64,000 nucleotides of DNA, taken from Bdellovibrionota bacterium. Its GTDB lineage: Bacteria; Bdellovibrionota_C; UBA2361; JBIKWN01. The notes under the pieces are model-generated. The model made no database searches and was not told the origin of the DNA. It was given only the letters and a program-made list of their open reading frames with translations. Location of the stretch: the NCBI GenBank assembly GCA_044356295.1, contig JBIKWN010000004.1, positions 1 through 64,000 of the forward strand, written 5' to 3'. Positions 11,808 through 51,533 of this stretch are shown piece after piece. The translations under genes were made by a program, and so were the position numbers. Position 1 is the first letter of the stretch. Every line of letters starts with the position of its first letter.

Positions 11808-13169
11808 ATGATTGATTTTTTAGTAGTAGAGAGTAGTGCTGAACATAGAAATAGACTTTGCGAGCGTTTATTATCGCTCCAAGGCGAAGTAACACGTTTA
11901 TTTCATGCGGCTCCTCAAATCTCGTTACGTCCTGCAGCTCCCCAAGAGCTTTCATATTTAAAACACCCTGATTTTATAATTTTAGGAAAAGAATATCTTT
12001 CTGAAGATCTTGTGCAAATTGCATCTGTAAAAAAGTTTTTTCCAGATACTCGAATTATTGCAGAAGTTACAAAGGAACTTTCAAGCCTTGTCATTGCAGA
12101 ACAGATGGTACGTCTTGGAGTAGACGATATTCTTTCTGATGATATCTCAGCTACTGATTTTTTTAGAAAAATTATTTTACTCAGTAAAAAAGAGAAAAAA
12201 AGTTCTCTTGGAAAATTAATCATTGTTGATAGTGGGAAAGGGGGGACAGGAGTTACCACGGTTGTAGCTTCAATCGGTGAACTGCTTCGTTCAAGTGGTA
12301 AAAAAGTTTGTTTAGTCGATCTAGATACCGAGACTCAGGATCTTACACGGTTTCTTCAAGTACGCCCTTTTTTAAATGAAAATCTCACTGCAGCGCTTGA
12401 GAATGGCAAAGCAATTATAAAAGAATGCGTCGACCAGATGGTTGTAGCAATAGATGGTGATGAGGATTTTGGAATTGTTGCTCCTCCTGTGATTGAGCTG
12501 TTTATTCAAGATTCGCGCTCTCAGATGGTTCGATCATTTATCTCTGTCATTGAGCAGCTCGATAAGATCCATGATGTTGTTATAATTGATGTTGCAGGGC
12601 TTCGAGGATCACTGCAACTTGCATTACAACGGATAGCAGATACCTATATTCTTGTTGCTAATCTAGAAGTCGCCTCAGTTTTTTCAACAATTCAAGCAAT
12701 TCAAAAAGTTTCAGATACTCAGTCTAAAAATGATTTTCGAATTCTTTTAAATGCTCGTACGACACAAGGACTTCCACGTTCCCTTGTACAATCAGAGATT
12801 ATTAAATCTGCAGAGTTGTTAAACGGGCAAGTATTACAAAGTATTATTCCATTTTCTCAATCACTGCTTTCTTGGCCAGGTTCTGTTGGCTCAATGTTTT
12901 TAGCGAGTGGTAAAAAAGTTGAACAAGCATTGAGATCCATTCTCATTGAAATTGGTTATTTGGAAAAAGAAGTGGCTCCTTCGGTAATTCAACCTGTTCT
13001 TAAACAATTAATTGAGAAAACTTCAGAAAACTTACGTCAACTACGTTTTCATAAATCTAAACAAATAACTAAAAAAATATCTATTGCGAATCCTGAACTG
13101 AGTGATTCTACGACACATGTATTAAAGGCTATTGAGGCGCCTCGAAAAGCACTGCCTACGATTGAATAA
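11808..13169 (+). CDS. cpaE: TadZ/CpaE-like MinD-family pilus protein with N-terminal pseudo-receiver domain
   Basis: Deviant Walker A SGKGGTGVTT, VCLVDLD; first gene of the Tad cluster. Confidence 0.75.
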   Translation: MIDFLVVESSAEHRNRLCERLLSLQGEVTRLFHAAPQISLRPAAPQELSYLKHPDFIILGKEYLSEDLVQIASVKKFFPDTRIIAEVTKELSSLVIAEQMVRLGVDDILSDDISATDFFRKIILLSKKEKKSSLGKLIIVDSGKGGTGVTTVVASIGELLRSSGKKVCLVDLDTETQDLTRFLQVRPFLNENLTAALENGKAIIKECVDQMVVAIDGDEDFGIVAPPVIELFIQDSRSQMVRSFISVIEQLDKIHDVVIIDVAGLRGSLQLALQRIADTYILVANLEVASVFSTIQAIQKVSDTQSKNDFRILLNARTTQGLPRSLVQSEIIKSAELLNGQVLQSIIPFSQSLLSWPGSVGSMFLASGKKVEQALRSILIEIGYLEKEVAPSVIQPVLKQLIEKTSENLRQLRFHKSKQITKKISIANPELSDSTTHVLKAIEAPRKALPTIE

Positions 13170-13195
13170 ATTTAACTTAATTAAGGAGAGACTAA

Positions 13196-13402
13196 ATGAA
13201 AAAAAATAAGAAACAGAAAGGTTTTACCCTTCTCGAGTATACAGCAGGGGCCGCTGTCATAATCGGTGTTGTTTGGGTTGCAGTGAATGCAATGGGGGGC
13301 AGTCTTCGTGATGTGTTCGATGCAATTTCAAGATGGGCTAATGGTAGAGTCAGTCAAATTGATAATGGTTCTGCTGGCGGATCTGGATCAGGAACTCCAT
13401 AA
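13196..13402 (+). CDS. flp: Flp-type pilin
   Basis: 68 aa, KKQKG|FTLLEY followed by a hydrophobic helix, AAGGAGAG RBS. Confidence 0.85.
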   Translation: MKKNKKQKGFTLLEYTAGAAVIIGVVWVAVNAMGGSLRDVFDAISRWANGRVSQIDNGSAGGSGSGTP

Positions 13403-13405
13403 GTC

Positions 13406-14311
13406 ATGGCTGTAAGATATCGACCACGGCAAAGACGTGGAATCAATTCATATACTACGGCATTAGTGTTTTTGAGCGTTTCAATTTTAGGTGCTGCATT
13501 GATTTTATCAATGACAAAACAAAAACCAGAACTCAAACAACAATCAATTGTTGTTGCCGAGTATGATACTGTATCTTTGCCCGTTCCTTCTAAACCTGTT
13601 CCAGCAGGAGTAAAAGGAAAAGATATTTTATTTAAATTTGTTTCTTTTCCAAAACAACAAATTCCATTAGGCGCAATCACCGATCTTTCGTTGATTACCG
13701 ATCAATCGTCTAACGTTGCTCTTCCAGCCGATCTGCCTCTTTTTGAAAGTAATTTTTCAAAGGGATTCCATGCTTCAAATCCAGTGATTGAAAGAATCCC
13801 TGCCGGAATGAGAGCAATGACAATTCGTGTTGATGCAACAACAGCGGTAGAAGGGTGGGCAGGTAGTGGGGCCATTGTTGATATCCTTTTAGTTACTAAA
13901 GATCAGACGAAAGTTGTTGCTGAAAAAGTGAGAATACTTTCAGCAGAGCGATCAGTTGCACCTGTAGAGGGCGCTGGTTCTCCTTCAGTTCCTAATACGA
14001 TTACTGTGCTTGTGACTCAAGAGCAATGTCTTGCAATAAATACTGCGATACCACTTGGAAAAATTGCCTTTGCTCTTAGAAGTACTGCAGATGAAGCTGC
14101 TTGGAATGATGGTATTTATACAGCTGACCGATTAAAAGGTTCAAATATTGCTTCAACTGGAAAGCGTCCTGAAGTTTCAGGATTTGTTTCGGTAAAAGAT
14201 AGTGACCATAAGCCAGGTAAGCAGTTTGCCTTTACCGATGGTCGTTGGATTAAAACTGATTCTATTCCATCTGGATTTCTAGTTGATCAGGATAGAGGAA
14301 TATCAGAATGA
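13406..14311 (+). CDS. cpaB: Flp pilus assembly protein CpaB/RcpC
   Basis: IPAGMRAMTIRVD...AVEGW...G..VDILL; N-terminal TM helix. Confidence 0.9.
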   Translation: MAVRYRPRQRRGINSYTTALVFLSVSILGAALILSMTKQKPELKQQSIVVAEYDTVSLPVPSKPVPAGVKGKDILFKFVSFPKQQIPLGAITDLSLITDQSSNVALPADLPLFESNFSKGFHASNPVIERIPAGMRAMTIRVDATTAVEGWAGSGAIVDILLVTKDQTKVVAEKVRILSAERSVAPVEGAGSPSVPNTITVLVTQEQCLAINTAIPLGKIAFALRSTADEAAWNDGIYTADRLKGSNIASTGKRPEVSGFVSVKDSDHKPGKQFAFTDGRWIKTDSIPSGFLVDQDRGISE

Positions 14312-15672
14312 AAAAGGCAGCGCTGGCATTTCAAGATTCGTATTTGCCAGTGCCGGTTTCTAAAGGTACAGAACGAAAACCTGCTTTTTCATCAGCTACT
14401 ATTATTTATGTTTTGCAAGAAGTGCTCAGAGAACTTGCTAACCATTCAGATGAAACACTAAGCGATGAAAAAGAGCTCCAAAAAATTGTTCAATCAGTTG
14501 AAGAAAAAGTTGGTATTCAGCTCACTCAACTAGAACGAACTGAAGTTTTAGCTAGTATAGAGAAAGAAAAAAGAGCTTTTGGCGTTCTTCAGGAGCTTAT
14601 CGATGATAGCTCGGTATCCGATATAATCGTTTCTGATTATTGTCATATAACTGTTCAAAAGGGTCGAAAAAATATTCGAACTGATTATTCTTTTTCAACA
14701 GAAGCAGCATATGAAATATTTGTCGAACGGTTATTAACAAAAGCGGGAACGAGCTATTCGACTAAAAAGCCTATAGCTGACGGCATGATTGGCTCTTTCG
14801 CTCGAATCCATGCGGTTCATAAATCAATCTGTGAAGGTGGTCCATATCTTACGATTAGGTTAAATCGATTTTCGTCTGTTGGAATTTCAGATCTCTATCT
14901 TGCGGGCCTTGCACCTCGACAAATTTTTGATTATCTCGAAGCACTCGTTGCTACTGGGCATACACTTCTCTTAGCAGGGGAAGTCGGCACTGGTAAGACA
15001 ACGCTTGCAAGAGCACTTGCAGGTACTATTCCTTTTGATGAATCAATTATCGTCATTGAAGATACTGCCGAGATTCGCCTTGACCATCCGCATGTTCGCT
15101 ACGTTACGACACGAGAAGCAAACACTGAAGGAGCTGGTAAGCTTTCACCAAGTGAATGCATCCGCGCAGGCATGCGTATGGCAATGAATCGAATTATTTT
15201 CGGTGAGATTCGAGATGCAGAAGCCGCCGAAAGTTTTATTGATGTCTGTGCCTCTGGACATCCCGGTCTTTCAACAATTCATTCAAGAAGTGCAATTGAC
15301 GCAGTTGCGCGGCTAGAACTTTTTCTAGGAAGAGCCCAAAAAGGTGTTGAAAAACGAGTCCTGACGGAACAAATTGCAACAGCACTGCAAGTCATTATTC
15401 ATATTGATATCTGTAAAGAGACAGGACTTCGCAGAATTATGGAAGTAAAGGAAATAGGACCATTTTCTGACGGAGTTCTCCGGCAGCGTGATATGTTTCG
15501 ATATCAGTTAAAAGATGGCACTCCTACTTGGACAGTCTCAAATAAAGTAAGCGCTTATAAAAATAAAATTGAAAATACTCAAAAGCCTGTTCGACTATCA
15601 CAATATCCTAATCAATTAGCGTTCTCTGTCGAAGAACATTTTCAACATTTTCGGTCACGAGAGGCGGCATGA
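14308..15672 (+). CDS. cpaF: Tad secretion ATPase CpaF/TadA
   Basis: GEVGTGKTT, IEDTAEI, RIIFGEIRD, SGHPGLSTIH. Confidence 0.92.
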   Translation: MKKAALAFQDSYLPVPVSKGTERKPAFSSATIIYVLQEVLRELANHSDETLSDEKELQKIVQSVEEKVGIQLTQLERTEVLASIEKEKRAFGVLQELIDDSSVSDIIVSDYCHITVQKGRKNIRTDYSFSTEAAYEIFVERLLTKAGTSYSTKKPIADGMIGSFARIHAVHKSICEGGPYLTIRLNRFSSVGISDLYLAGLAPRQIFDYLEALVATGHTLLLAGEVGTGKTTLARALAGTIPFDESIIVIEDTAEIRLDHPHVRYVTTREANTEGAGKLSPSECIRAGMRMAMNRIIFGEIRDAEAAESFIDVCASGHPGLSTIHSRSAIDAVARLELFLGRAQKGVEKRVLTEQIATALQVIIHIDICKETGLRRIMEVKEIGPFSDGVLRQRDMFRYQLKDGTPTWTVSNKVSAYKNKIENTQKPVRLSQYPNQLAFSVEEHFQHFRSREAA

Positions 15673-16361
15673 GATTTCAAAATGCTTCAAGTATTCAGAT
15701 TCAAGATCTGCTTCGCGCTCATGAGCACGAAACTAGTCCGTCTCGTTCAGATTCAAACAAAGAAATTAATAAAAATCGAAAGAGTATTTTTAATTTCTTT
15801 ACGACACAATCAAATAAAAAAAAGTTTGAAGAAGATTATCCTGCTTTTTTGTTGGCAATGGCATCCGCTCTTCGAACTGGGCTTGATCCACTTGCAGCAA
15901 TTAATTCCGTTGAATCAATGCTTCCAGAGTCATCCGTTTTACGCAGAGAGATAGGATTGTTCAAAACACAGATTCAATCTAGTTCATCTGAAGAAGAAGC
16001 AATTTTTTCATTCGCATCATCTGTGAATCATCCTGATGTAAGACTTTTTACAACCGCACTGCTCCTTTCCAGGAAAGAAGGATCATCTTTAGGTGCGTGC
16101 TTGCAACGATTAAATCGATTTACAAGACAGCGACAAGCGTTTCGTAGAAAAGCCAAAGCAGCAGTTGCTATGCAGCGATTATCCAGTTTTGGAATTGTTG
16201 GATGCAGCCTTCTTATTGGAGTGATGCAACTTGGAATGAATCATCAAAGTTTTATCGAGGCTTGGAATCATCCTCTAGGTAGATTACTTCTTTCGGGCGG
16301 TGGATCGTTATTGTGTATAGGATTTATCTGGATGCTCTATCTTGGGAGGTCAAAGATATGA
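15669..16361 (+). CDS. tadB: TadB-like (T2SSF) platform protein
   Basis: MASALRTG, G.SL...L..L pattern, two C-terminal TM helices, position after tadA. Confidence 0.8.
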   Translation: MRFQNASSIQIQDLLRAHEHETSPSRSDSNKEINKNRKSIFNFFTTQSNKKKFEEDYPAFLLAMASALRTGLDPLAAINSVESMLPESSVLRREIGLFKTQIQSSSSEEEAIFSFASSVNHPDVRLFTTALLLSRKEGSSLGACLQRLNRFTRQRQAFRRKAKAAVAMQRLSSFGIVGCSLLIGVMQLGMNHQSFIEAWNHPLGRLLLSGGGSLLCIGFIWMLYLGRSKI

Positions 16362-17191
16362 TTCGCGATCTATTGATAATGTTGATACCACTTTGTTGTT
16401 TGATTGCTGGAATTGGTCTTCATCTTTATGAAAAAAGAATTAAGATTAAAGGAAAAATATTTGATCTCTTGGATGACGATCAGGAAAAAGATGCTGCAGT
16501 TAATACAAAACAACAGTCGATTGGATCAAATATAATACTTCCATCTACTTTTGTTGCAGTTGCGCTTTTTGTCCAAGCGTTGAGTGGTAGATCAACAGGG
16601 ACAATCTTTGCTTCAGGGCTTATTGCCGGTGCATTCGGTATAATCATTAGTGAACAGATAAGAAAAAGAAAAACTACTTCTCAGATTCGTTCTATTGAGT
16701 ATTTTTTGCCACTTATCATGGAGCGTGTTGTTATGGCGGTTGAAGCGGGACTAGATATCATTCCTGCGATTAAAACTGTTGTTGGTATAGAACAACGACA
16801 ACTCAATTACTTTAAAAATAAACAGATACATACAGTTGAAGATCCAGTAAGCAAAGCACTTAGTTTAGTGGTTCAAAGAACTGAGAAAGGAGTTCATTTC
16901 GAAGAGGCATTGAAAGACGTTGCAAAGCTTTCATCATGTGCAAGTTTACAGCACTCATTTCTCCATCTTGGCATTGCTTATAGAGAAGGAGGTGAACTCA
17001 TTGGACCACTCAGAGAACTTAGTGATGCCACACAGTCTCAGTATCAAGATAGCATTGAAGAAGATTTAGCAAAGCTTCCAGTTAAAGCGACAGCCCCGTT
17101 AGTTTTAACATTTGCTGGGCTTATTTTATTTTTCCTTTCGTCACCCCTTATTCAAATTCTTTCATTTGCTGCTAAGGCGACACCAAAATGA
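16358..17191 (+). CDS. tadC: TadC-like (T2SSF) platform protein
   Basis: VMAVEAGLD, AKLPVKATAPL. ATG at 16358 (ATGA overlap, GGAGGT RBS) preferred over 16313. Confidence 0.82.
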   Translation: MIRDLLIMLIPLCCLIAGIGLHLYEKRIKIKGKIFDLLDDDQEKDAAVNTKQQSIGSNIILPSTFVAVALFVQALSGRSTGTIFASGLIAGAFGIIISEQIRKRKTTSQIRSIEYFLPLIMERVVMAVEAGLDIIPAIKTVVGIEQRQLNYFKNKQIHTVEDPVSKALSLVVQRTEKGVHFEEALKDVAKLSSCASLQHSFLHLGIAYREGGELIGPLRELSDATQSQYQDSIEEDLAKLPVKATAPLVLTFAGLILFFLSSPLIQILSFAAKATPK

Positions 17192-18615
17192 GCTTTTTAA
17201 CGACAAGTTTTATTTTTCCCCTTCTCGTATTGCTTGGAAGTATTGTTATTGATGTTCAAAATTATACTGCTCAGGCAGTTTCTCTTCAGGATGCAGTTGA
17301 TGATGCTGCATTAGTTGGTACCAAATATCTTCCCAATGTAGGTTTAGCCCAATCAGTTGCATCAGATCTTATAAAAAGACGAGTACCATCTGCAACCTTA
17401 CTAGTAACAGTAAAAAGTGATTCACTTTCAATAACAGCAGATCAAAAATTTTATCCGTTTCTTGCAAGTTTTTTTACAAACGTTCAAGGACAAGAAGGAT
17501 ATGAATTTTCCCTTCCGCTGAAAGCGATTTCATATGGTAAAATTACCCCGGTCGACCTATTTCTTGCGATTGAACGCGGAAGTCGAGTAGCTCCATCACT
17601 TTCTGCAACTGCAGATGAACGTTTAGGAGACCAACAATCGTTTCCAGTTCCGCTCTATTTTTCACAGAATCAAATTTCCCAAGGCAGTCATATTATTCCT
17701 CCAGAAATTGCCCTTGAGCAGTGTTTTAATCCTCGATTTAATAAGATTAAAGAAACTAGTATTCGAGTGCTCGATAGTGTTGCAGGTTCAGCACTACACC
17801 GTTTAAGTGTGAGCTTTTTTCCTGGAAGCAGAACGTTTAGGGGCAATAATAGAGCGCTTCAAAAATTTCAAAATCCAGATGTTGCAACATTTTATGATAC
17901 ATATCCAGACTCTGATAATGGAACTCCCGTCGTTGTGAATGAACTTGAAAATTCTTTTGATAATGGGAAACCTATTTTTCCTGTGCAATCAGTTCAATGT
18001 GCATCTGTCGCGCAAAATGTGTTCTCAAGTACAACGTATCAATTCCCTAAAAAACCAAACTATATTGAGTCTTCAAATCAAAATCTAATTAACGATACTG
18101 ATTTAGCGATCAATCAATCGTATCCGTTAACGTATGCAGAACCAATCTGGTCTCGCGTGGCATATCCAACTGCTCTGTTTGATACGAATCTTTCTTTGCA
18201 GTCGATGATTGCTGATTTTAATTCAACGAATGCTGATACAAATCGTGGAGGGCTTATCAACCGCGCAAGACAAGTAGGGGTATTTGTATCTGTTGGTCTT
18301 CCTCAAGTACAAGGTGTAACGCTTCAACATGAAGATGATCCTGTTTGGAATGCGCTGGATGGAACCCTATCAAATATTCAGGCTATCAAACGAAGAGAAA
18401 ACAATAGACTTACTATTCTCTATATCATGCTTGAATCAACCCAAAGTGAAGCATCACTCGTAGAGCGACTCTTTCAACGTCATCAAGAACTAGGAGTTGA
18501 TGGGCAACCAGTTTTTCAAGCAAAAGTTTTTACGGGAGAACATTTCCAGTCACTTATCTCAGAAACAATTCCGTCTATTTTAAGAGGAGAGCAGGGAAGT
18601 GTTATTGCTCGGTAA
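17188..18615 (+). CDS. TadG-like pilus-associated protein, possible degenerate vWA domain
   Basis: N-terminal TM then IVID...LQDAVDDAALVG (Tad N-terminal signature); VDLFLAIERGSR resembles a degenerate vWA first strand. Confidence 0.7.
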   Translation: MSFLTTSFIFPLLVLLGSIVIDVQNYTAQAVSLQDAVDDAALVGTKYLPNVGLAQSVASDLIKRRVPSATLLVTVKSDSLSITADQKFYPFLASFFTNVQGQEGYEFSLPLKAISYGKITPVDLFLAIERGSRVAPSLSATADERLGDQQSFPVPLYFSQNQISQGSHIIPPEIALEQCFNPRFNKIKETSIRVLDSVAGSALHRLSVSFFPGSRTFRGNNRALQKFQNPDVATFYDTYPDSDNGTPVVVNELENSFDNGKPIFPVQSVQCASVAQNVFSSTTYQFPKKPNYIESSNQNLINDTDLAINQSYPLTYAEPIWSRVAYPTALFDTNLSLQSMIADFNSTNADTNRGGLINRARQVGVFVSVGLPQVQGVTLQHEDDPVWNALDGTLSNIQAIKRRENNRLTILYIMLESTQSEASLVERLFQRHQELGVDGQPVFQAKVFTGEHFQSLISETIPSILRGEQGSVIAR

Positions 18616-19291
18616 AAAACGAAACCAACAATTTGGATTCACTATCATCGAAACTGCTTCAATTGCTTTTATTTTAGCCTCTTTGTCGTATGTAATCTTT
18701 ACGCTCGGACAAGCATTCAGTCTTCGTCACGAAGTCAATCAATCAGTTTCAGAGATTCTTCATCTACAAAACCGACCGATGATGAGAGTGAGTTTTAATA
18801 ATCAAGGAATACCCTCATACGAAACTCAGAGTGACGCAGTATCAGAGACAACCCAACTGCTCTCTACTCACGGAAAAGAGCTTATAGAGAAACGGAATTT
18901 TTTAAGAAATCGTCCGTACCGGATAGATGCCGCAGTTGTATTTGGGTCTATAGATGAAGAGAGTGGATCATTTAATGGATTTGAATCGATACAATCAACG
19001 TCTCATAGCGGCGAACTTTCCGTTCCGCAGTCAATTTTGCAAGATTTTTCAATAAGTAAAATCCTTGAAGATTCAAGTCGTAATTCTTTCGTACTGCAAT
19101 CATTTGCTGAAAGCTCAATGGGAATTGTATACGAAGAGGGTCATAAGAATTTTATTCCTCGCCTCCCGCTTCAAATCGTGTGTCTCTATATCCAAGATAC
19201 TGGATCGATAAAAGCAATTTTTGGATCAACGTATATTCCTGACGGAATAATTGCACAGTGTGATATTAAAAAAGGCAGAACCGTATTATGA
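18599..19291 (+). CDS. Pseudopilin/minor pilin-like protein (TadE/F-like)
   Basis: KKRNQQFG|FTIIE followed by a hydrophobic helix. Confidence 0.65.
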   Translation: MLLLGKKRNQQFGFTIIETASIAFILASLSYVIFTLGQAFSLRHEVNQSVSEILHLQNRPMMRVSFNNQGIPSYETQSDAVSETTQLLSTHGKELIEKRNFLRNRPYRIDAAVVFGSIDEESGSFNGFESIQSTSHSGELSVPQSILQDFSISKILEDSSRNSFVLQSFAESSMGIVYEEGHKNFIPRLPLQIVCLYIQDTGSIKAIFGSTYIPDGIIAQCDIKKGRTVL

Positions 19292-44447: not shown

Positions 44448-44677
44448 GAAGGAAGCATACTAGGTAATTGTAGATTGTTCATGATTCGTTCAACGCAACA
44501 ACGTTAAAAGCTTTCAGTTTCATGAAAGAGCAAAAAATATAAAAAGATGCCACAGGCTTATTTTATTAACCACCTGAAATAACTCAGAAAAATAAAATTT
44601 ATTAGTCAAAAAACTGATAAATTTCGAATACTTATCATAATAATAATCATCTAATATGAGACACTGTAAACCTCAGC

Positions 44678-45583
44678 ATGGAAGCCGAAAAACTTTACCA
44701 ATCACTTTATACAATTCGTCATTTCGAGACGCGTCTTCTTGAGTTGTTTGGAGAAGGAAAGTTAAACGGGACTACTCATGCTTACATTGGACAAGAAGCA
44801 AATGCAGTTGGAGTTATCACGCATCTCCAAAGCGATGATGTTGTTTGGAGCAATCATCGATGTCATGGACACTACCTTACCTATACGAACGACCTTGAAG
44901 GATTAGTCCACGAGCTTGTTGGTACCTCAAAAGGAACATGTGCTGGTAAAGGTGGCAGTCAACATCTTTGTAAAGGAAATTTTTTTACGAATGGAATTCA
45001 AGGAAGCATTACTGCAGTAGCAGCAGGGATGGCACTTTCTCAAAAGCTATCAAACTCAAAAGCAATATCGACTGTTTTTATTGGTGATGGAACGCTCGGT
45101 GAGGGGCTTGTTTATGAAGTCATGAATATTGCATCACTTTGGAAACTTCCGATTCTATTTGTACTTGAACATAATCAATATGCTCAGAGCACTCCAGCAA
45201 CATTGGAAGTTTCAGGGATACCAAAACTTCGACCTGAAAGTTTTGGTATTAAAACATTTGAAATAGATTCAAATGACATTAATGAAACATATTTATTTGG
45301 GCAAGAAATAACAAATTTTGTTCGGACCAATCGGCTACCAGCATTTGCAATAATGCACACCTATCGGCTGTGTCCACACAGTAAAGGTGATGATTTTCGC
45401 GACATATCAGAGATCGAACACTGGAAAACAAAAGATCCAATTGGATTTGCTCAAAAACTTTTAGCGAAAGAAGCGATCAATCAGATAGAAGAATCTGTTC
45501 ATGAAAGAATGCACAGTGCTGTTCAAGATGCATTATCTTTATTTGAGCAGCAAAAACTTGCTCGAAAGGAGGCAATGACATGA
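44678..45583 (+). CDS. ThDP-dependent dehydrogenase E1 alpha subunit
   Basis: H.YIGQEA, SNHRCHGH, GKGGSQH, GDGTLGEG...EHNQY, YRLCPHSKGDD. Confidence 0.92.
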   Translation: MEAEKLYQSLYTIRHFETRLLELFGEGKLNGTTHAYIGQEANAVGVITHLQSDDVVWSNHRCHGHYLTYTNDLEGLVHELVGTSKGTCAGKGGSQHLCKGNFFTNGIQGSITAVAAGMALSQKLSNSKAISTVFIGDGTLGEGLVYEVMNIASLWKLPILFVLEHNQYAQSTPATLEVSGIPKLRPESFGIKTFEIDSNDINETYLFGQEITNFVRTNRLPAFAIMHTYRLCPHSKGDDFRDISEIEHWKTKDPIGFAQKLLAKEAINQIEESVHERMHSAVQDALSLFEQQKLARKEAMT

Positions 45584-46590
45584 ATAATCAGAACAAAAAA
45601 AGATTTGTCACTGTTCTGAATGAAACGCTCCATACTTTATTTGAAGAGCACGAAAATGTAGTACTTATTGGTGAAGACTTACTTGATCCTTACGGTGGAG
45701 CTTTTAAAGTTTCAAAAGGACTATCGACTGCTTATCCAGAGCGAGTCATTACTTCACCCATCAGTGAAGCCGCAATTGTTGGCATTGGAGCAGGCCTCGC
45801 AATAAAAGGGTTTTTGCCAATAATTGAAATTATGTTTGGTGACTTTACGACACTTGCTTTTGATCAAATAGTGAATGGCATCTCTAAGTTTCGTTCGATG
45901 TATAATAATCAAATAGAATGTCCTGTGATGATACGAACGCCTATGGGTGGTGGACGTGGATATGGTCCAACGCATAGTCAAAGTTTAGAAAAATTCTTTT
46001 TTGGAATACCACATTTCTTAGTTCTTGCTCCTCATACGATTCATGATGTTGAATCATTTTATAAAAATGCACTGTTAGATCCTCGTCCGAAACTAGTTGT
46101 AGAAAACAAATTACAGTACGCAGAATTTGTTGAATTCGGGAGTGATAAAATTAAAGATTTTTTTGTAAGCTATTCAAATACTCCTTTTCCAACAGCAACA
46201 CTATCTCTTGCTCAACAGAGCAAAGTCGATGCAACTATTATCACGTATGGTGGTATGGTTTCAGTTGCGCTGGAGGCAGCAGAAAAATTATATCTTGAAG
46301 AAGAGAAAATTGTTGAAGTTCTCGTGCCGACAATGATATCGCCCTTTCCCCTAAAAGATATCGAAAATTCAGTTCGTAAAAGTGGAAAAGTATTAATTCT
46401 GGAAGAGGGTACGAAAACAAATGGATTTGGAGCTGAAGTCGCTTGTCAGATTCAGGAACACCTTTTTAGCTGCTTAAAAGCTCCTGTAAAGAGAATAGCA
46501 AGCCCCGATGACTGTATTCCTAGCTCTAAAGCATTAGAAATCCACTTTTTACCTCAGGTAGATCTGGTTTATCGTGAACTCCTCTTATGA
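45580..46590 (+). CDS. ThDP-dependent dehydrogenase E1 beta subunit
   Basis: IGEDL..PYGGAFKV, SPISEAAIVG, EIMFGDF, GYGPTHSQS. Confidence 0.92.
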   Translation: MNNQNKKRFVTVLNETLHTLFEEHENVVLIGEDLLDPYGGAFKVSKGLSTAYPERVITSPISEAAIVGIGAGLAIKGFLPIIEIMFGDFTTLAFDQIVNGISKFRSMYNNQIECPVMIRTPMGGGRGYGPTHSQSLEKFFFGIPHFLVLAPHTIHDVESFYKNALLDPRPKLVVENKLQYAEFVEFGSDKIKDFFVSYSNTPFPTATLSLAQQSKVDATIITYGGMVSVALEAAEKLYLEEEKIVEVLVPTMISPFPLKDIENSVRKSGKVLILEEGTKTNGFGAEVACQIQEHLFSCLKAPVKRIASPDDCIPSSKALEIHFLPQVDLVYRELLL

Positions 46591-47702
46591 AAAAAGTATT
46601 TATTCCTGTTCAAGATGCAAATAGCACTACAGCAATTATTCGAGAGTTGCTCTGTAAAGACGGTGATGTTGTTACAAAAGGGCAAGTGATAGCTCATGTA
46701 GAAACATCGAAAGCTATCTATGATGTGAACTCCTCTGGAGCTGGTCGAATTATTTATAATACGAAGTTACATGACGAGCATTCATTTTCAAATCCAATTG
46801 CTTGCATCGCTGAAGAGGGAGAAGATTTTGAAACAGTACGGGCGAATTTTTATTCAGGAAAATCAGAAGAAAAAACTACTGAAGTAAAAGCTACTAAAAA
46901 AGCAAAACTTCTTGCTGAAACTATAGGCATACATCTTTCTGATATAATAAAAGAGGGGATACTTTCTGAAGAAGATGTAATGCAATTTGCAAAAGATCAA
47001 GGAATTGCTACCCCCAAAGCTCCGATTTCTTTTTTAAAACCAAATGAATTTCCGCCGCGACTTACAAGAGTACTTGTTATAGGAGCGGGCAACGGTCTGG
47101 CACAAGTTGCAGATATTATGAGTCATGTTGCTCATCAGAGAATTGTCGGTTGTGTCGATGATAGTAAGGACCTTCATTCAAATGAGCCTTTTGGAGTACC
47201 TCTGATAGGGACGATTGCTGATATTGAACGTCTCTATAACGAAAAGAAATTTGATGCAGCTGTTATAGCAATTTCATCGAACGTCAATGTGCGCCGTATG
47301 TTGTTTGAAAAAATTAAAAATTTTGGGATCCCATTTGTAAATGTTATCGATCCATCTACCAGAATAAATAAATTTTCCATATTAGGTGAGGGGAATATTA
47401 TCTGTAGTTTTGTACATGTCGGAACATATACATCTCTTGGCGATAACAATTTTATAAGCGCGCATTGTAGTATTGATCATCATAATATTTGGGGTTCACA
47501 CATCACCCTTGGGCCCGGATGCCATTTTTCAGGTCGAGTAAAAGTGTGTGATTCAGTGAAATTTGCTACTGGAATTTTTGTCCAAAACGGCATCGAGATT
47601 GGAGCTGAATCAACAATTGCATCAGGTGCAGTTATTACAAGCTCTATTCCTGAGAAATCATTGGTGAAGACACAAGTGTCGCATGTGATTGTTCCAAAAT
47701 GA
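46587..47702 (+). CDS. Fusion: lipoyl domain + subunit-binding domain + PglD/NeuD-like hexapeptide acyltransferase
   Basis: GDVV.KGQ.IAHVETSKA (lipoyl Lys42); KATKKAKLLAETIGIHLSDI..G.L..EDV; VIGAG...GCVDD; NVIDP, hexapeptide repeats, IDHH. Confidence 0.85.
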   Translation: MKKVFIPVQDANSTTAIIRELLCKDGDVVTKGQVIAHVETSKAIYDVNSSGAGRIIYNTKLHDEHSFSNPIACIAEEGEDFETVRANFYSGKSEEKTTEVKATKKAKLLAETIGIHLSDIIKEGILSEEDVMQFAKDQGIATPKAPISFLKPNEFPPRLTRVLVIGAGNGLAQVADIMSHVAHQRIVGCVDDSKDLHSNEPFGVPLIGTIADIERLYNEKKFDAAVIAISSNVNVRRMLFEKIKNFGIPFVNVIDPSTRINKFSILGEGNIICSFVHVGTYTSLGDNNFISAHCSIDHHNIWGSHITLGPGCHFSGRVKVCDSVKFATGIFVQNGIEIGAESTIASGAVITSSIPEKSLVKTQVSHVIVPK

Positions 47703-49317
47703 GCTCGATCGACTCAATGCTCCATTCAGACTGAGTATCTAATCCAATCTGTTCAATAGTCACACAAGTTACTGATGATGGCTCGCTAAAATAGAGCTCT
47801 ACGTTATTTTCTTGTTTTAAACTAAAAAGCGAATTATTAATCCGTTCAACAGCACCTCTCCACCATGGTTCTCTGTATAAGAGGATGTCTTTAGTACAAG
47901 CTCCATCTCTTGAAGAACCATTAAAGACTTGAACACCACGTGGAAAATCGCTGATAAAATTCCGAAGCGTGATGGCAATTCCTTGAACACTGAGAGGTTC
48001 AACAAGGTCAAATGATACCCATTCACCTCCATGCTGAGTTCTTGGGACAGTGCTCCAACGGGTTTGTTTTTTTCGTTCTAAAATTATTGGAAGCATTGAT
48101 TGATTTGTTGAACCCCAAAGATTTTTGATTTCGTTTTTTGTAAGAATTATTCGATTAGTATCGTTGAGTGGAGGAAGAGGAAGTTTCGATTTAATGATAT
48201 ACAAGGACGGTGAATTTAAGAGAGGGCTTATCTGAAGTCTTTTGTCGCTTACTGATGTATGAAAAAAAGTATCAATAGGAGCAGTCAGATATAAAAAAAC
48301 TGGCAACGCAAAGGAAAGAGCAGCAATCCGAGTATTAGATATACTGATGATCAGAGAAGTATAAATAATTAATCCAATACAAATCATTTGATTTATAGAA
48401 TACATTTTTGCAAACGGAATGATCCGCGATATTCCAGCAAGAGGAGATGCGGACCGAATAGAGGGCGAAAACAGATCGCTTTCCATAAATAATAAAAAGG
48501 TAAAAACGAGAAAGCCAAAAGACTTTTTTAGTTGTGATGTTTGAAAACTTGTAATCCATGAAAGAAATATTGCAAAGAAAACAAAGTAGGTAACGCGCCC
48601 AGCAATCCAGATTTCGTTCAGGGAAGGGCGCTCTGGGGATGGACCAAATAATGGATCGATACCGAGCCCAGTTCCGGTACTTGGGACAAATCGGCTCAAT
48701 GATGGCAGATGTAACTGTGGAGGGAAGTGGGTAAGAGCCAGTGCAATGAAAAAGCAAAATATAATAAAAAGAAATAATGAATTACCGAATGGATCTTTTC
48801 TTTGTTCGTTACGTAAAAGCTTATCTATAATGAGGGCAATAATAATAGTTACTGGAAAGAAAACCGGAAGGATGAGAGCAGAGATTAAGAGCAGGATATT
48901 TCTTTTTTGTAATGAAAGAGCACATACATTAATTAAAATTGAAATTGCGGTAAGTAGTGAAAAAAGAGAAACACCATCAAAAATAAAAGTACTAAAGATC
49001 AAAAAGAAAATTGCAACGAAACTTTTCTGATCGAGCGTAAAATTTTTACAAAGGAAAAAAAGCATCCCCAATAGTGCTGAGATCAGCGCTATACAGTTTA
49101 GAGGATAAAGATTTTGAAAGAATAAAGGCAGTCGTAGGGCATAGTAAGCATTTGTTTCCAGTCCTGTCACAATTGTAAGTGTATTTGTCGCAGAAGGGCG
49201 AATCGTCCCAAAAAAACTATCACCTGCAGGAATATAGAAGCTTAGAAAAAGTCCAAGGCAGCCAGAAAAAATGCTAAAAAAAACTAATCCGATACTCCAT
49301 GAATTTGATTTTACCAT
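47644..49317 (-). CDS. Multi-TM membrane protein with C-terminal discoidin/F5-8-like domain
   Basis: Many hydrophobic helices; TRWST...Q.GGEWVSFDL...DFPRG...WSIESIE. Confidence 0.65.
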   Translation of the reverse strand: MVKSNSWSIGLVFFSIFSGCLGLFLSFYIPAGDSFFGTIRPSATNTLTIVTGLETNAYYALRLPLFFQNLYPLNCIALISALLGMLFFLCKNFTLDQKSFVAIFFLIFSTFIFDGVSLFSLLTAISILINVCALSLQKRNILLLISALILPVFFPVTIIIALIIDKLLRNEQRKDPFGNSLFLFIIFCFFIALALTHFPPQLHLPSLSRFVPSTGTGLGIDPLFGPSPERPSLNEIWIAGRVTYFVFFAIFLSWITSFQTSQLKKSFGFLVFTFLLFMESDLFSPSIRSASPLAGISRIIPFAKMYSINQMICIGLIIYTSLIISISNTRIAALSFALPVFLYLTAPIDTFFHTSVSDKRLQISPLLNSPSLYIIKSKLPLPPLNDTNRIILTKNEIKNLWGSTNQSMLPIILERKKQTRWSTVPRTQHGGEWVSFDLVEPLSVQGIAITLRNFISDFPRGVQVFNGSSRDGACTKDILLYREPWWRGAVERINNSLFSLKQENNVELYFSEPSSVTCVTIEQIGLDTQSEWSIESIELILEQSHATLVSSPMISQE

Positions 49318-51533
49318 AACCTTGAAAACCCTGATTTTGCGTTAATAGTAATAGGTGTTTGTGTCGGACAATTACTGAGCTGTATAAAAGAAAGATTGCC
49401 TTCAAGTATTTTAGAAGTCATTTGACAAGAGCTGTTTGTTTTTAAAAACGGGAAATATTGAAAAGAAAGCAGTGCATTTGGTTCATCTAACGTGAGTGTG
49501 ACTGAATTAGAAGTCTGAGAGATAATATTTCCCTTGCCTTCAAGAATATAATTACTTAGATGTTTTCGTTTAAATACGTTAAATACGCCGTAGATTCCTA
49601 ACAAAGTATACTGTTCAGGATGTGCCCTGAAGTAAGTGCGCCATTTTTTCTCATGAGCAATAACAAGAGTAGCGTTTACTCTTGAGAAGTAATCTTCAAA
49701 TCCAATATTTCCACGGCGCAGATATTCTGCTGGCATAAGCTCTGTATAACGCCAAACATTATGGAATAAAGTAGAAGCAACTAAGGGAGTTTTTGCTTCT
49801 TGCATGAGCGGAGCAAGGTGCCCTTGATTGAGCTCATGAAGGACAAACCCAGCAAAAACTGCTCTTCCTCCTTGTGCATTATTTTGAATGACTTTAGAAA
49901 GTTCATAATAAACGGAATCAGCAAAGAAATATTTTTCGGGGCTTCTGTTGTAGATAATGCCACTGACTGAACCAATGCCTGAAAGTATTAAAGCTAAAGG
50001 AATACTGACAAGTACTCTACCAAGTTTCTTATGCCTTAAAATCTCTGTTGCATCAGAAAGAAGTCTTGCAGCAGGAATACACAATACAAATCCAAGGATG
50101 ATAATCATCCTGTCTAGCTCTAACTGAGGAAGTTTAGGGGCAACAATGAGTCCAAGTGTTAATAACCAGAATACATGAATAGCAGTAAGCCATTCTTTTC
50201 TAAATGCAAAAAAGACTGCAAAAAGTCCAAATATGAGAACAGTTATATTCATTGGATTAAAGAGTTCTCTGGAGTTCTTTAACACTATTTGAGGTGTAAT
50301 CTTTTTTGCTGATCCCTTTACGAATGCATTTGGTTGCTTTTTAGTTATCACTGGAGGGGCAATCGTTTCGTCTTGTGACTCAGAAGCTACCTCTGCAGTG
50401 CCATGTGATTTTTCATGAAGCGCCATAAAAGTGTTTACTTTCGAAACAGAAAGAAACAAAACAATCCATGGGACATTAATGATGAGAAGGGCTGCAATGA
50501 ATTTTTGAACCTCTTTTCTCTTAATGAGCGACGGAAATTTAAATAATCCAAAAATAATAGCAGGAAGAAAAATGAGTCCGGTTAAAGACCAGCAAAGCAT
50601 TAACGAGAAACTAATCGTTGCAAAAATCCACTGACGACGAGTCAGTACTTCTTCTCGAAGAATTTTTATAGCAAAAACAATATTAAGAGGAATAAAAAGA
50701 GTCGATGTTACAAACCCCATCGATCCGTACTTAAACGCCCAACGATACCAAAAAAGACTTGTTGCAAATGAAAGCAGTGATGCAATTGCAGGAATTGGAT
50801 CTCGGTAACGCTCTATACGACAAGCGTAAAATATCAGTGCAGGACCAATAATAAAAAGTGTCCCTGAAATAATAATGTTATAGATACTTCGAACATCAAA
50901 AAGGTAAATCAAAGGAGCCCAAAGGGTAAAAAGATTTAAAACTCCAGTAGCAAAAAAATCTCTCGCATCAAGTCCCATATTCCAAAACGGATTATAAAAT
51001 GGAATAAATGGAAAATTCTCTTTCAATAAACTTAATCGATACACAACAACAGAGTGATCATCTGAATAAAGAAAATTACCTTTCGAGACCGATAGAAAAG
51101 TAAATATTAAACAAACACTACTAATGACAAGAGATGTAGAGAAAAGAAATTTTTCTTTTCTATGCCAAAGGGCGGTAATAACCAGTGCAGTAAAAAAGAA
51201 AACTTCACCCCGTATCTCTGGAGCTTTAGGAAAGCTATATGTTCTTGCTGTCCAATCAGAGAAAAAGCAGATTAGAAAACTTATAACAACACCGAAGTGT
51301 GATATATTTGGAGTCCACTGCGATCTATTTATCCCTTTTGCATGGTGCTGATAAAGTGACAGTCCCAAAAATAATAAGCCGATCATTGTGACCCAAGAAC
51401 CAGCAGGAACAAGGACGGATCCTTCGGAGCTCCAGAGACGAAGGGTTCCACCTAAAATCCCAAAAAAAAGCAGGAATATCCCCACCGTAAAGAGGGTTTC
51501 TAATGTTGATTTATTTACACAGAATTTAAACAT
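49311..51533 (-). CDS. Multi-TM membrane protein, probable GT-C-type glycosyltransferase
   Basis: SDDH in the first large loop, YNPFWNMG, many TM helices, soluble C-terminal domain. Confidence 0.55.
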   Translation of the reverse strand: MFKFCVNKSTLETLFTVGIFLLFFGILGGTLRLWSSEGSVLVPAGSWVTMIGLLFLGLSLYQHHAKGINRSQWTPNISHFGVVISFLICFFSDWTARTYSFPKAPEIRGEVFFFTALVITALWHRKEKFLFSTSLVISSVCLIFTFLSVSKGNFLYSDDHSVVVYRLSLLKENFPFIPFYNPFWNMGLDARDFFATGVLNLFTLWAPLIYLFDVRSIYNIIISGTLFIIGPALIFYACRIERYRDPIPAIASLLSFATSLFWYRWAFKYGSMGFVTSTLFIPLNIVFAIKILREEVLTRRQWIFATISFSLMLCWSLTGLIFLPAIIFGLFKFPSLIKRKEVQKFIAALLIINVPWIVLFLSVSKVNTFMALHEKSHGTAEVASESQDETIAPPVITKKQPNAFVKGSAKKITPQIVLKNSRELFNPMNITVLIFGLFAVFFAFRKEWLTAIHVFWLLTLGLIVAPKLPQLELDRMIIILGFVLCIPAARLLSDATEILRHKKLGRVLVSIPLALILSGIGSVSGIIYNRSPEKYFFADSVYYELSKVIQNNAQGGRAVFAGFVLHELNQGHLAPLMQEAKTPLVASTLFHNVWRYTELMPAEYLRRGNIGFEDYFSRVNATLVIAHEKKWRTYFRAHPEQYTLLGIYGVFNVFKRKHLSNYILEGKGNIISQTSNSVTLTLDEPNALLSFQYFPFLKTNSSCQMTSKILEGNLSFIQLSNCPTQTPITINAKSGFSRLW

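Follow-up and report, generated by a model that had tools for sequence, protein, structure and literature searches.

What would a pair of genes resembling pyruvate dehydrogenase (PDH) do next to a lipoyl arm that is attached not to the acyltransferase core of a 2-oxoacid dehydrogenase complex (the E2 core) but to a sugar acyltransferase? This question is raised by a stretch of 64,000 nucleotides (nt) of a Bdellovibrionota genome (the window, below), in which positions 44678-47702 encode, with all three open reading frames (ORFs) on the + strand, the alpha and beta subunits of a decarboxylase (E1) dependent on thiamine diphosphate (ThDP), followed by a fusion protein of 371 amino acids (aa). 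The answer that we favor, with somewhat better than even confidence, is that the triad would be one self-contained acylation module, whose arm delivers an acyl group straight to a nucleotide amino sugar. The features of the locus are as follows.

44448..44677, + strand: AT-rich intergenic leader, part of a 3.25-kb stretch missing from a genome of the same genus (G002)
44678..45583, + strand: E1 alpha subunit, ThDP-binding, 301 aa, short subfamily; E1_dh (PF00676) at 1.5e-45
45580..46590, + strand: E1 beta subunit, 336 aa; Transket_pyr at 2e-29 and Transketolase_C at 1.8e-25; ATGA overlap with both neighbors
46587..47702, + strand: fusion protein P0001, 371 aa, consisting of lipoyl arm, subunit-binding-like linker, PglD_N and left-handed beta-helix acyltransferase
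46587..46850, + strand: lipoyl domain, residues 1 to ~88; Biotin_lipoyl match at residues 16-56, K42 codon at 46710-46712
46884..47006, + strand: peripheral-subunit-binding-like segment, residues ~100-140, ATKKAKLLAETIGIHL...ILSEEDV
47067..47315, + strand: PglD_N, nucleotide-sugar-binding type, residues 161-243; PF17836 at 5.4e-07
47346..47669, + strand: left-handed beta-helix, residues ~254-361; Hexapep match at residues 264-297, catalytic His298 codon at 47478-47480

The arm, the transferase and the E1 pair

An earlier reading of the window, made from the sequence alone (the sequence-only reading), had described three coupled genes, an intact lipoyl motif, a missing E2 catalytic core and, in place of the latter, a PglD/NeuD-type domain and a beta-helix with an IDHH motif, and this description has stood up well. 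Both gene junctions are ATGA, the stop codon of each gene overlapping the start codon of the next; the translation of the third gene contains VETSK, with the lysine at position 42, and no Met-Lys-Met motif of biotin carriers; PglD_N and Hexapep are matched, with IDHH at residues 296-299; and neither Pfam nor NCBIfam finds an E2 acyltransferase core (2-oxoacid_dh, PF00198, DHRxxDG) in the fusion protein, the weak E2 matches of NCBIfam being confined to residues 1 to ~131. Scans of the window with both libraries detect no E2 core and no gene for E3, the component that reoxidizes the arm, again as had been claimed. Pfam does recognize a lipoyl domain with the conserved target lysine, and K42, the putative site of lipoylation, is invariant in an alignment of 70 homologues, along with E39 and H298. 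The subunit-binding motif, also claimed, is the least secure part of the architecture. The Pfam family E3_binding matches the aligned place in 28 of the 70 family members, it matches one representative (P0187) at 2.7e-13, and an AlphaFold2 model places two helices in the linker (104-113 and 128-137), but the protein of the window itself is missed at E<=0.01.

As to the transferase half, the nearest solved chains by sequence are the acetyltransferase domain of Neisseria PglB (PglB-ATD; 4m98, 8.8e-17) and Caulobacter PerB (4ea7, 1.4e-14), and H298 aligns with the catalytic His of PerB, the residue mutated in entries 4eaa and 4eab. The same AlphaFold2 model (mean predicted local distance difference test score, pLDDT, 93.6; predicted template modeling score, pTM, 0.63) is matched by Foldseek to PerB (4eaa; template modeling score on the target 0.88, root-mean-square deviation 1.4 A), to PglB-ATD (4m99) and to PglD. 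Because of these sequence relatives, the alignment of H298 and the match in fold, the C-terminus is a hexapeptide sugar acyltransferase of the PglD/PerB kind with a catalytic His; together with the Hexapep match, the fold leaves the original assignment of this half in place. PglD_N is found by Pfam in 64 of the 70 family members. A prediction of the complex of three beta-helix halves with the lipoyl domain, run without controls, scored 0.00 and carries no weight either way.

The E1 pair looks catalytically competent, because the residues expected of such enzymes are kept: the alpha subunit, whose best solved relative is human PDH E1alpha (6.5e-32), has the ThDP/Mg motif GDG...EHNQY and the active-site His of CPHSKGD, while in the beta subunit the ThDP-activating Glu of ISEAA and the His of PTHSQS align with human E1beta. 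These catalytic positions are invariant across 30 cassettes for E1alpha and 32 for E1beta. The subunits are closer to their counterparts in cassettes of other phyla (44-51% identity for E1alpha, 42-51% for E1beta) than to the best paralogues in their own genome (33% and 32%, respectively), and on these grounds the cassette E1 is a dedicated lineage with short alpha subunits of ~300 aa. This lineage is large, with 4489 matches at E<=1e-20 among the candidates, whose automatic names in the source are pyruvate or acetoin dehydrogenase alpha; for the window's E1alpha, the best NCBIfam match, PDH_E1_alph_y, reaches 226.6 bits against a cut-off of 393.85.

Recurrence of the fusion and its tie to E1

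Is such a fusion peculiar to this one genome? The sequence-only reading had proposed a search for the same architecture next to E1 genes, and the fusion with an E1 pair does recur, in many phyla. A word-indexed search returned 75 clusters, and the precomputed Pfam column lists Biotin_lipoyl for 68 of them; among 1.84 billion representatives, a profile search gave 2864 matches at E<=1e-30, and ~138 of the best 150 cover essentially the full length of the fusion; when one genome per species was scanned, 70 loci came up, with 55 full-length fusions and 12 matches that start late in the query, many of the 55 belonging to close kin (Micromonosporaceae), by which the counts overstate independence. 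Cultured carriers are represented by Dactylosporangium (complete genomes) and by type strains of Actinoplanes, Catellatospora and Acanthopleuribacter pedis, and metagenome-assembled genomes (MAGs) by Kapaibacteria, Opitutaceae, Alphaproteobacteria, Holophagae, UBP9 and others. A search aimed at longer proteins found no fusions larger than this architecture, which is weak evidence. One representative from the profile search (P0106, 865 aa) has four tandem PglD-like units and no arm.

The window belongs to an assembly of 128 contigs, and the triad is missing from genomes of the same genus, both of which could be expected if the fusion were an assembly artefact or a decaying remnant without function. 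We find this hardly credible: no frame is broken and the catalytic residues have been preserved, complete genomes of cultured actinomycetes also encode the fusion, nearly all of the best profile matches have it at full length, and the same DNA turns up in the runs of other studies. One contig from another sequencing run (X1) shares the window's DNA across 44835-48400, pieces from a second (X2) span the two gene junctions as well as the right-hand junction, the last of which a piece from a third (X3) also crosses. The fusion is a natural gene, encoded in 55 species genomes of many phyla.

The arm and E1 are co-inherited near-obligately. Within 3.5 kb of the full-length fusions, E1beta is found in 53 of 55 loci and E1alpha in 52 of 55, the exceptions without E1 being a locus at a contig edge (L013) and one with none in the 5 kb upstream (L006). 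Of the late-starting matches, 10 of the 12 are proteins of ~220-260 aa that really lack the arm, all 10 of them without an E1; the other two (L073, L075) are fragmented matches, with E1 present. The manner of coupling varies. Of the 52 listed E1beta ORFs, 12 overlap the start of the fusion gene by 4 nt, like that of the window, and in four loci (L016-L019) the order is reversed, and the fusion gene precedes a gene for E1alpha and E1beta in a single chain of 636-644 aa. No homologue of the E2 core or of E3 was found in any of the 70 loci.

A view from the side of E1 is offered by metagenome contigs sampled by the E1alpha signature SNHRCHGH, with 579 confirmed stretches, of which 80 were kept and 41 loci were assessable. 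A PglD-type fusion accompanies E1 in 23 of these 41. In 18 the protein with arm, PglD_N and Hexapep is encoded immediately behind E1beta (Pfam recognizes 15 of them, tblastn alone the other 3), and in 5 it precedes E1alpha, three of these having NeuB right after E1beta. In a further 7 of 41 (L117, L118, L128, L130, L141, L156, L158) the gene after E1beta encodes the same arm plus linker on a protein of 490-525 aa with a beta-helix like that of WcaF or maltose O-acetyltransferase and without PglD_N. Five loci have a lipoyl-bearing protein with a remainder of no assigned family, three have a normal E2 core beside the short-lineage E1, with a PglF-like dehydratase gene adjoining in one case, and three have other partners (GNAT, a formyltransferase-like gene, or nothing). 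An E3-like gene lies 2 kb downstream in one locus (L190).

This sample provides what we consider the strongest comparative argument. Because two different, unrelated beta-helix transferases, both of thioester-using kinds, carry the same arm behind the same E1 lineage, the comparison points to the arm as the source of the acyl group. And because a normal E2 occasionally accompanies this E1 lineage, it suggests an origin in a dedicated mini-dehydrogenase, the E2 core of which became replaced by the final transferase.

Glycan genes around the cassette

The notion of a polysaccharide locus, a part of the original proposal, holds for other genomes, in which genes for amino sugars and glycans flank the fusion, but not for this window. 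In the 10-kb flanks of the full-length loci, a DegT/DnrJ/EryC1 aminotransferase gene is present in 37 of 55, versus 0 of 12 for the late-starting matches. Further neighbors elsewhere include genes for a GFO/IDH/MocA oxidoreductase, a 4,6-dehydratase/epimerase, Bac_transf, glycosyltransferase family 2 (GT2), and Wzx-like and Wzy-like proteins. In Catellatospora, a block of DegT, GFO, GT1 and deacetylase genes faces the triad, and in A. pedis the triad stands among genes for DegT, radical SAM, cytidylyltransferase, split transketolase and heptose-type functions. The gene for NeuB, the nonulosonic acid synthase, directly follows E1beta in L151, L176 and L179, where the fusion is located before E1alpha, and these neighbors tie some of the cassettes to pathways of sialic-acid-like sugars.

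Such contexts also bear on a different use of the same parts, in which the beta-helix trimer would be a non-homologous stand-in for the E2 core, passing the acyl group from the arm to coenzyme A (CoA), and the triad would be a minimal dehydrogenase making a special acyl-CoA. Beta-helix transferases do bind CoA thioesters, and the 3 of 41 loci with a normal E2 core imply that a dedicated acyl-CoA supply exists within the E1 lineage. We nevertheless regard this as quite improbable. The sugar-nucleotide domain PglD_N and the catalytic His are kept; in several loci (L025, for example) the fusion stands next to DegT and a GFO oxidoreductase where an N-acetyltransferase would be expected, and the annotated parts contain no other such transferase; and one thioester tunnel cannot hold arm and CoA at once.

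The triad in its host genome

In the window, the triad is a stand-alone insertion or deletion of three genes, with housekeeping functions making up the rest. Nearby are genes for a hotdog thioesterase and an SbmA/BacA-like ABC transporter and two convergent genes that match no family in Pfam or NCBIfam, the triad itself being situated between the ABC transporter gene and a convergent membrane-protein gene. In G002, of the same genus, the gene for the ABC transporter (whose protein is 72% identical) overlaps by 4 nt with the homologue of a 557-aa gene (52%), leaving nothing between the two, and homology of the 557-aa protein stops at residue 540, which coincides with the stop codon of the fusion, its last 17 codons lying antisense inside the fusion gene. 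Because the flanking genes of G002 abut and the homology stops at that codon, the triad with its 230-nt leader (44448-47702) is a clean 3.25-kb insertion or deletion, a module that moves as a unit. No flanking repeats that would explain an insertion were seen at the triad, the leader and the cassette ends have no Rfam match of note, a promoter-like site in the leader (44614-44641) is not above chance, and the cassette ends have no terminator. Among 40 other genomes of the same order, only one (G025, 32% identity) has a full-length fusion.

The ORF of the 557-aa gene (47644-49317, - strand) ends 59 nt inside the fusion gene. Nothing in the homologue of the same genus corresponds to its last 17 codons, as would be expected if the insertion or deletion had rewritten the C-terminus. 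Neither this gene nor the convergent 740-aa gene (49311-51533, - strand) is assigned to a family by Pfam or NCBIfam. Far from the triad, at 11808-19291 (+ strand), the window contains a row of genes resembling a Tad/Flp pilus (a ParA/MinD-type ATPase, RcpC/CpaB, a T2SSE ATPase and two T2SSF), followed by response-regulator and hybrid-kinase genes.

The remaining components that the module would require appear to be available elsewhere in the genome. E3-like genes are present on contigs C6, C93, C18 and C45, outside the module, and one gene of the BPL_LplA_LipB family, a family of lipoyl transferases, is on contig C5. Three E2 cores (contigs C7, C123 and C82) and six further E1_dh matches are also encoded, and no second gene of the PglD/NeuD family was found in this genome. 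The likeliest DegT partner is on contig C69 and is 47.7% identical to a DegT that adjoins the fusion elsewhere. In another genome of the same genus (G001; L083, contig C286) there is an ordinary PglD-like gene of 211 aa, without a DNA counterpart in the window's genome, and one type of acyltransferase may have been displaced by the other between the two.

A second E1alpha/E1beta pair of this genome, on contig C82 (70203-78600; L106 1203-9624), has no lipoyl partner. It is followed by genes for a sugar C-methyltransferase-like protein, a DmpF/DmpG-like aldehyde dehydrogenase and aldolase, a short-chain dehydrogenase/reductase, an acetolactate-synthase-type ThDP enzyme and a methyltransferase, it adjoins DegT, dehydratase and heptose genes (L077), and the whole looks like a branched-sugar cluster of the AviB1/AviB2 type. 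AviB1/AviB2 and Pau11/Pau12 are likewise E1alpha/beta pairs recruited into sugar biosynthesis, and passages of the paper that treats them describe PDH-like E1 pairs in sugar pathways as making C2 branches by C-C bond formation, with no acyl transfer, and name no lipoyl partner (PMC4425429). Might the E1 pair of the triad work in the same manner? The precedents, and the presence of such a pair in a sugar cluster of this very genome, are in favor. We consider it very improbable all the same: the arm adjoins E1 near-obligately, the armless relatives lack E1, and the residues for reductive acylation of lipoamide are kept in the E1 of the triad.

A possible sequence of reactions

How, then, would a self-contained acylation module operate? 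Lipoylation, acylation of the arm by E1, direct transfer from the arm to a sugar, and the identities of the acyl group and of the acceptor are what we infer, as follows. An E1alpha2beta2 heterotetramer with ThDP would decarboxylate a 2-oxoacid, by likeness most probably pyruvate, and would reductively acylate the lipoyl-lysine at K42 of the fusion protein. The latter is probably a beta-helix trimer, like PglD and PerB, bearing the arm and a subunit-binding segment, the segment being the part that would dock E1 and the E3 of the host. The acyl-dihydrolipoyl arm would swing over to occupy, instead of acyl-CoA, the thioester site of the PglD/PerB-type transferase to which it is fused; His298 would activate the amino group of a nucleotide-linked amino sugar, supplied by a DegT-type aminotransferase, to which the acyl group would be transferred; and the arm would be reoxidized by the host E3. 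An acetyl group derived from pyruvate fits the likeness of E1 to PDH, while the maintenance of a dedicated E1 in glycan loci argues for an acyl group without a ready CoA thioester.

The armless relatives and the question of the donor

In a tree of the transferase half, obtained in a quick IQ-TREE search with 92 rows (79 of armed and 6 of armless forms, plus 7 ordinary PglD-like proteins of relatives' genomes as outgroups), the armed family is placed behind a long, fully supported branch, apart from the ordinary PglD-like proteins. All six armless forms, which come from MAGs of gut, rumen and UBP9, fall into one clade (Shimodaira-Hasegawa-like approximate likelihood ratio test, SH-aLRT, 97), which is sister to an armed UBP9 form (SH-aLRT 100). 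This topology reflects a single, secondary loss, in which the arm and E1 disappeared and the transferase was retained. The armless loci (L029, L031, L032, L035, L037-L041 and L047) are found beside BacA, FabA-like, methionine gamma-lyase, racemase and AnmK genes.

Several observations weigh against an arm that replaces acyl-CoA, or against parts of that reading. The first is the nesting of the armless clade within the armed family: because this clade keeps the beta-helix half, caution is due against strict CoA INDEPENDENCE, and the transferase half evidently can function, or become re-adapted to function, with a diffusible donor, presumably acyl-CoA, and may still bind CoA. Three asparagines (N270, N288, N300), kept in armed forms and changed in armless ones, were considered as a donor signature and rejected, as an armed form (L016) already lacks them. 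If the acyl group is acetyl, the gain over acetyl-CoA is not evident. The NCBIfam model NeuD_NnaD (TIGR03570) matches residues 162-361 at 1.3e-38 and 132.6 bits, short of the 160.8 bits that the model requires. In its own genome the triad has no amino-sugar gene next to it, and joint acquisition of the C69 DegT with the triad had to be dismissed, this DegT being 80% identical in G002, which has no triad. To these should be added the close kinship among the full-length loci and the absence of an E3_binding match in the window's protein.

An alternative is an interpretation in which the beta-helix would be an ordinary, acyl-CoA-dependent sugar N-acetyltransferase and the arm and linker would merely tether it to a 2-oxoacid dehydrogenase, be it its own E1 or complexes of the host, for local supply of acyl-CoA or for regulation. 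All solved relatives use acyl-CoA, the armless clade persists without E1, and weak matches of the Pfam family CoA_binding are found on the PglD_N region in 17 of 70 members. These matches, however, are marginal and overlap with a generic Rossmann-like fold, K42 is invariant, the module has no E2 core with which to make acyl-CoA, and a dedicated E1, kept in 53 of 55 loci, would have no role unless the arm were acylated and then unloaded. A tethered, CoA-dependent enzyme thus seems to us unlikely, and we continue to favor the arm as the donor.

Relation to known systems

The triad shares with the complexes of heterotetrameric E1 (PDH, branched-chain 2-oxoacid dehydrogenase and acetoin dehydrogenase) the E1alpha and E1beta with a ThDP motif, the lipoyl Lys, the subunit-binding-like linker and translationally coupled genes; unlike these, it has neither an E2 core nor an E3 gene, its arm is fused to a beta-helix sugar acyltransferase, and its E1alpha, of ~300 aa, is of a lineage of its own. 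With PglD, PglB-ATD, PerB, VioB and NeuD it shares PglD_N, the left-handed beta-helix, the aligned catalytic His and the DegT neighbors. It departs from PglD, NeuD and PerB in ~155 extra N-terminal residues (arm and linker), in the GGH motif of the N-domain, which reads AGxGAxQ, and in a donor that is probably not CoA-bound. If the arm is indeed the donor, this would be, to our knowledge, the first known beta-helix sugar acyltransferase drawing its acyl group from protein-bound lipoate, and 2-oxoacid dehydrogenase chemistry would gain a new output, with glycan decoration fed directly from a 2-oxoacid.

Rewired dehydrogenase modules whose acyl group goes to acceptors other than CoA are already on record. 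In the naphthyridinomycin and quinocarcin pathways, glycolyl loading is reportedly carried out by a PDH-like E1 with a lipoyl arm. In these systems and in that of pepteridine, the catalytic domain of E2 is retained and a phosphopantetheine arm is loaded, whereas the triad has no E2 core and its proposed acceptor is a sugar amine. A study of pepteridine describes a PDH-like E1 with a fusion of E2 to a nonribosomal peptide synthetase, a system in which a carrier is primed in place of CoA and the E3 comes from the host; with Plu2796-2798 of this pathway, the triad has in common a dedicated E1, a lipoyl arm and, as proposed, an acyl group destined for a non-CoA acceptor and the borrowing of E3 (PMC5384830). 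The same study mentions the glycolicacyl extender unit in naphthyridinomycin (Peng 2012, as cited in PMC5384830). In neither this system nor the E1 pairs that make C2 branches is an arm joined to a beta-helix sugar transferase. We found no paper on a fusion of a lipoyl domain with PglD/NeuD or with a hexapeptide protein in the full-text literature, subscription journals being outside this coverage; one apparent lead, the word "Lipoyl" in PMC4875605, was rejected, as the term means lipid in the passage concerned. The triad appears to be a real and widespread variant of known systems, undescribed in the literature covered, with a plausible mechanism.

What the module may mean

The three genes are a concrete candidate for the source of those N-acyl groups on surface sugars that are not acetyl. 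For the nonulosonic acids of Tannerella, the genetic basis of a strain's N-acetimidoyl and N-glyceroyl groups is called a major challenge in a paper on the subject (PMC5378307). The module is compact and portable (3.25 kb) and is present in cultured, harmless actinomycetes and in Acanthopleuribacter, which makes it testable at the bench, and it is a possible tool for CoA-free acylation of glycans.

It is possible, even if we would at present lean against it, that lipoyl-armed beta-helix acyltransferases represent a widespread and overlooked class, with at least two architectures (PglD and WcaF) and a dedicated short E1, serving CoA-free glycan acylation, including with groups that lack a CoA thioester (glycolyl, glyceroyl-like, propionyl and others). 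Such a class would explain the genetic origin of the unusual N-acyl groups found on bacterial amino sugars and nonulosonic acids.

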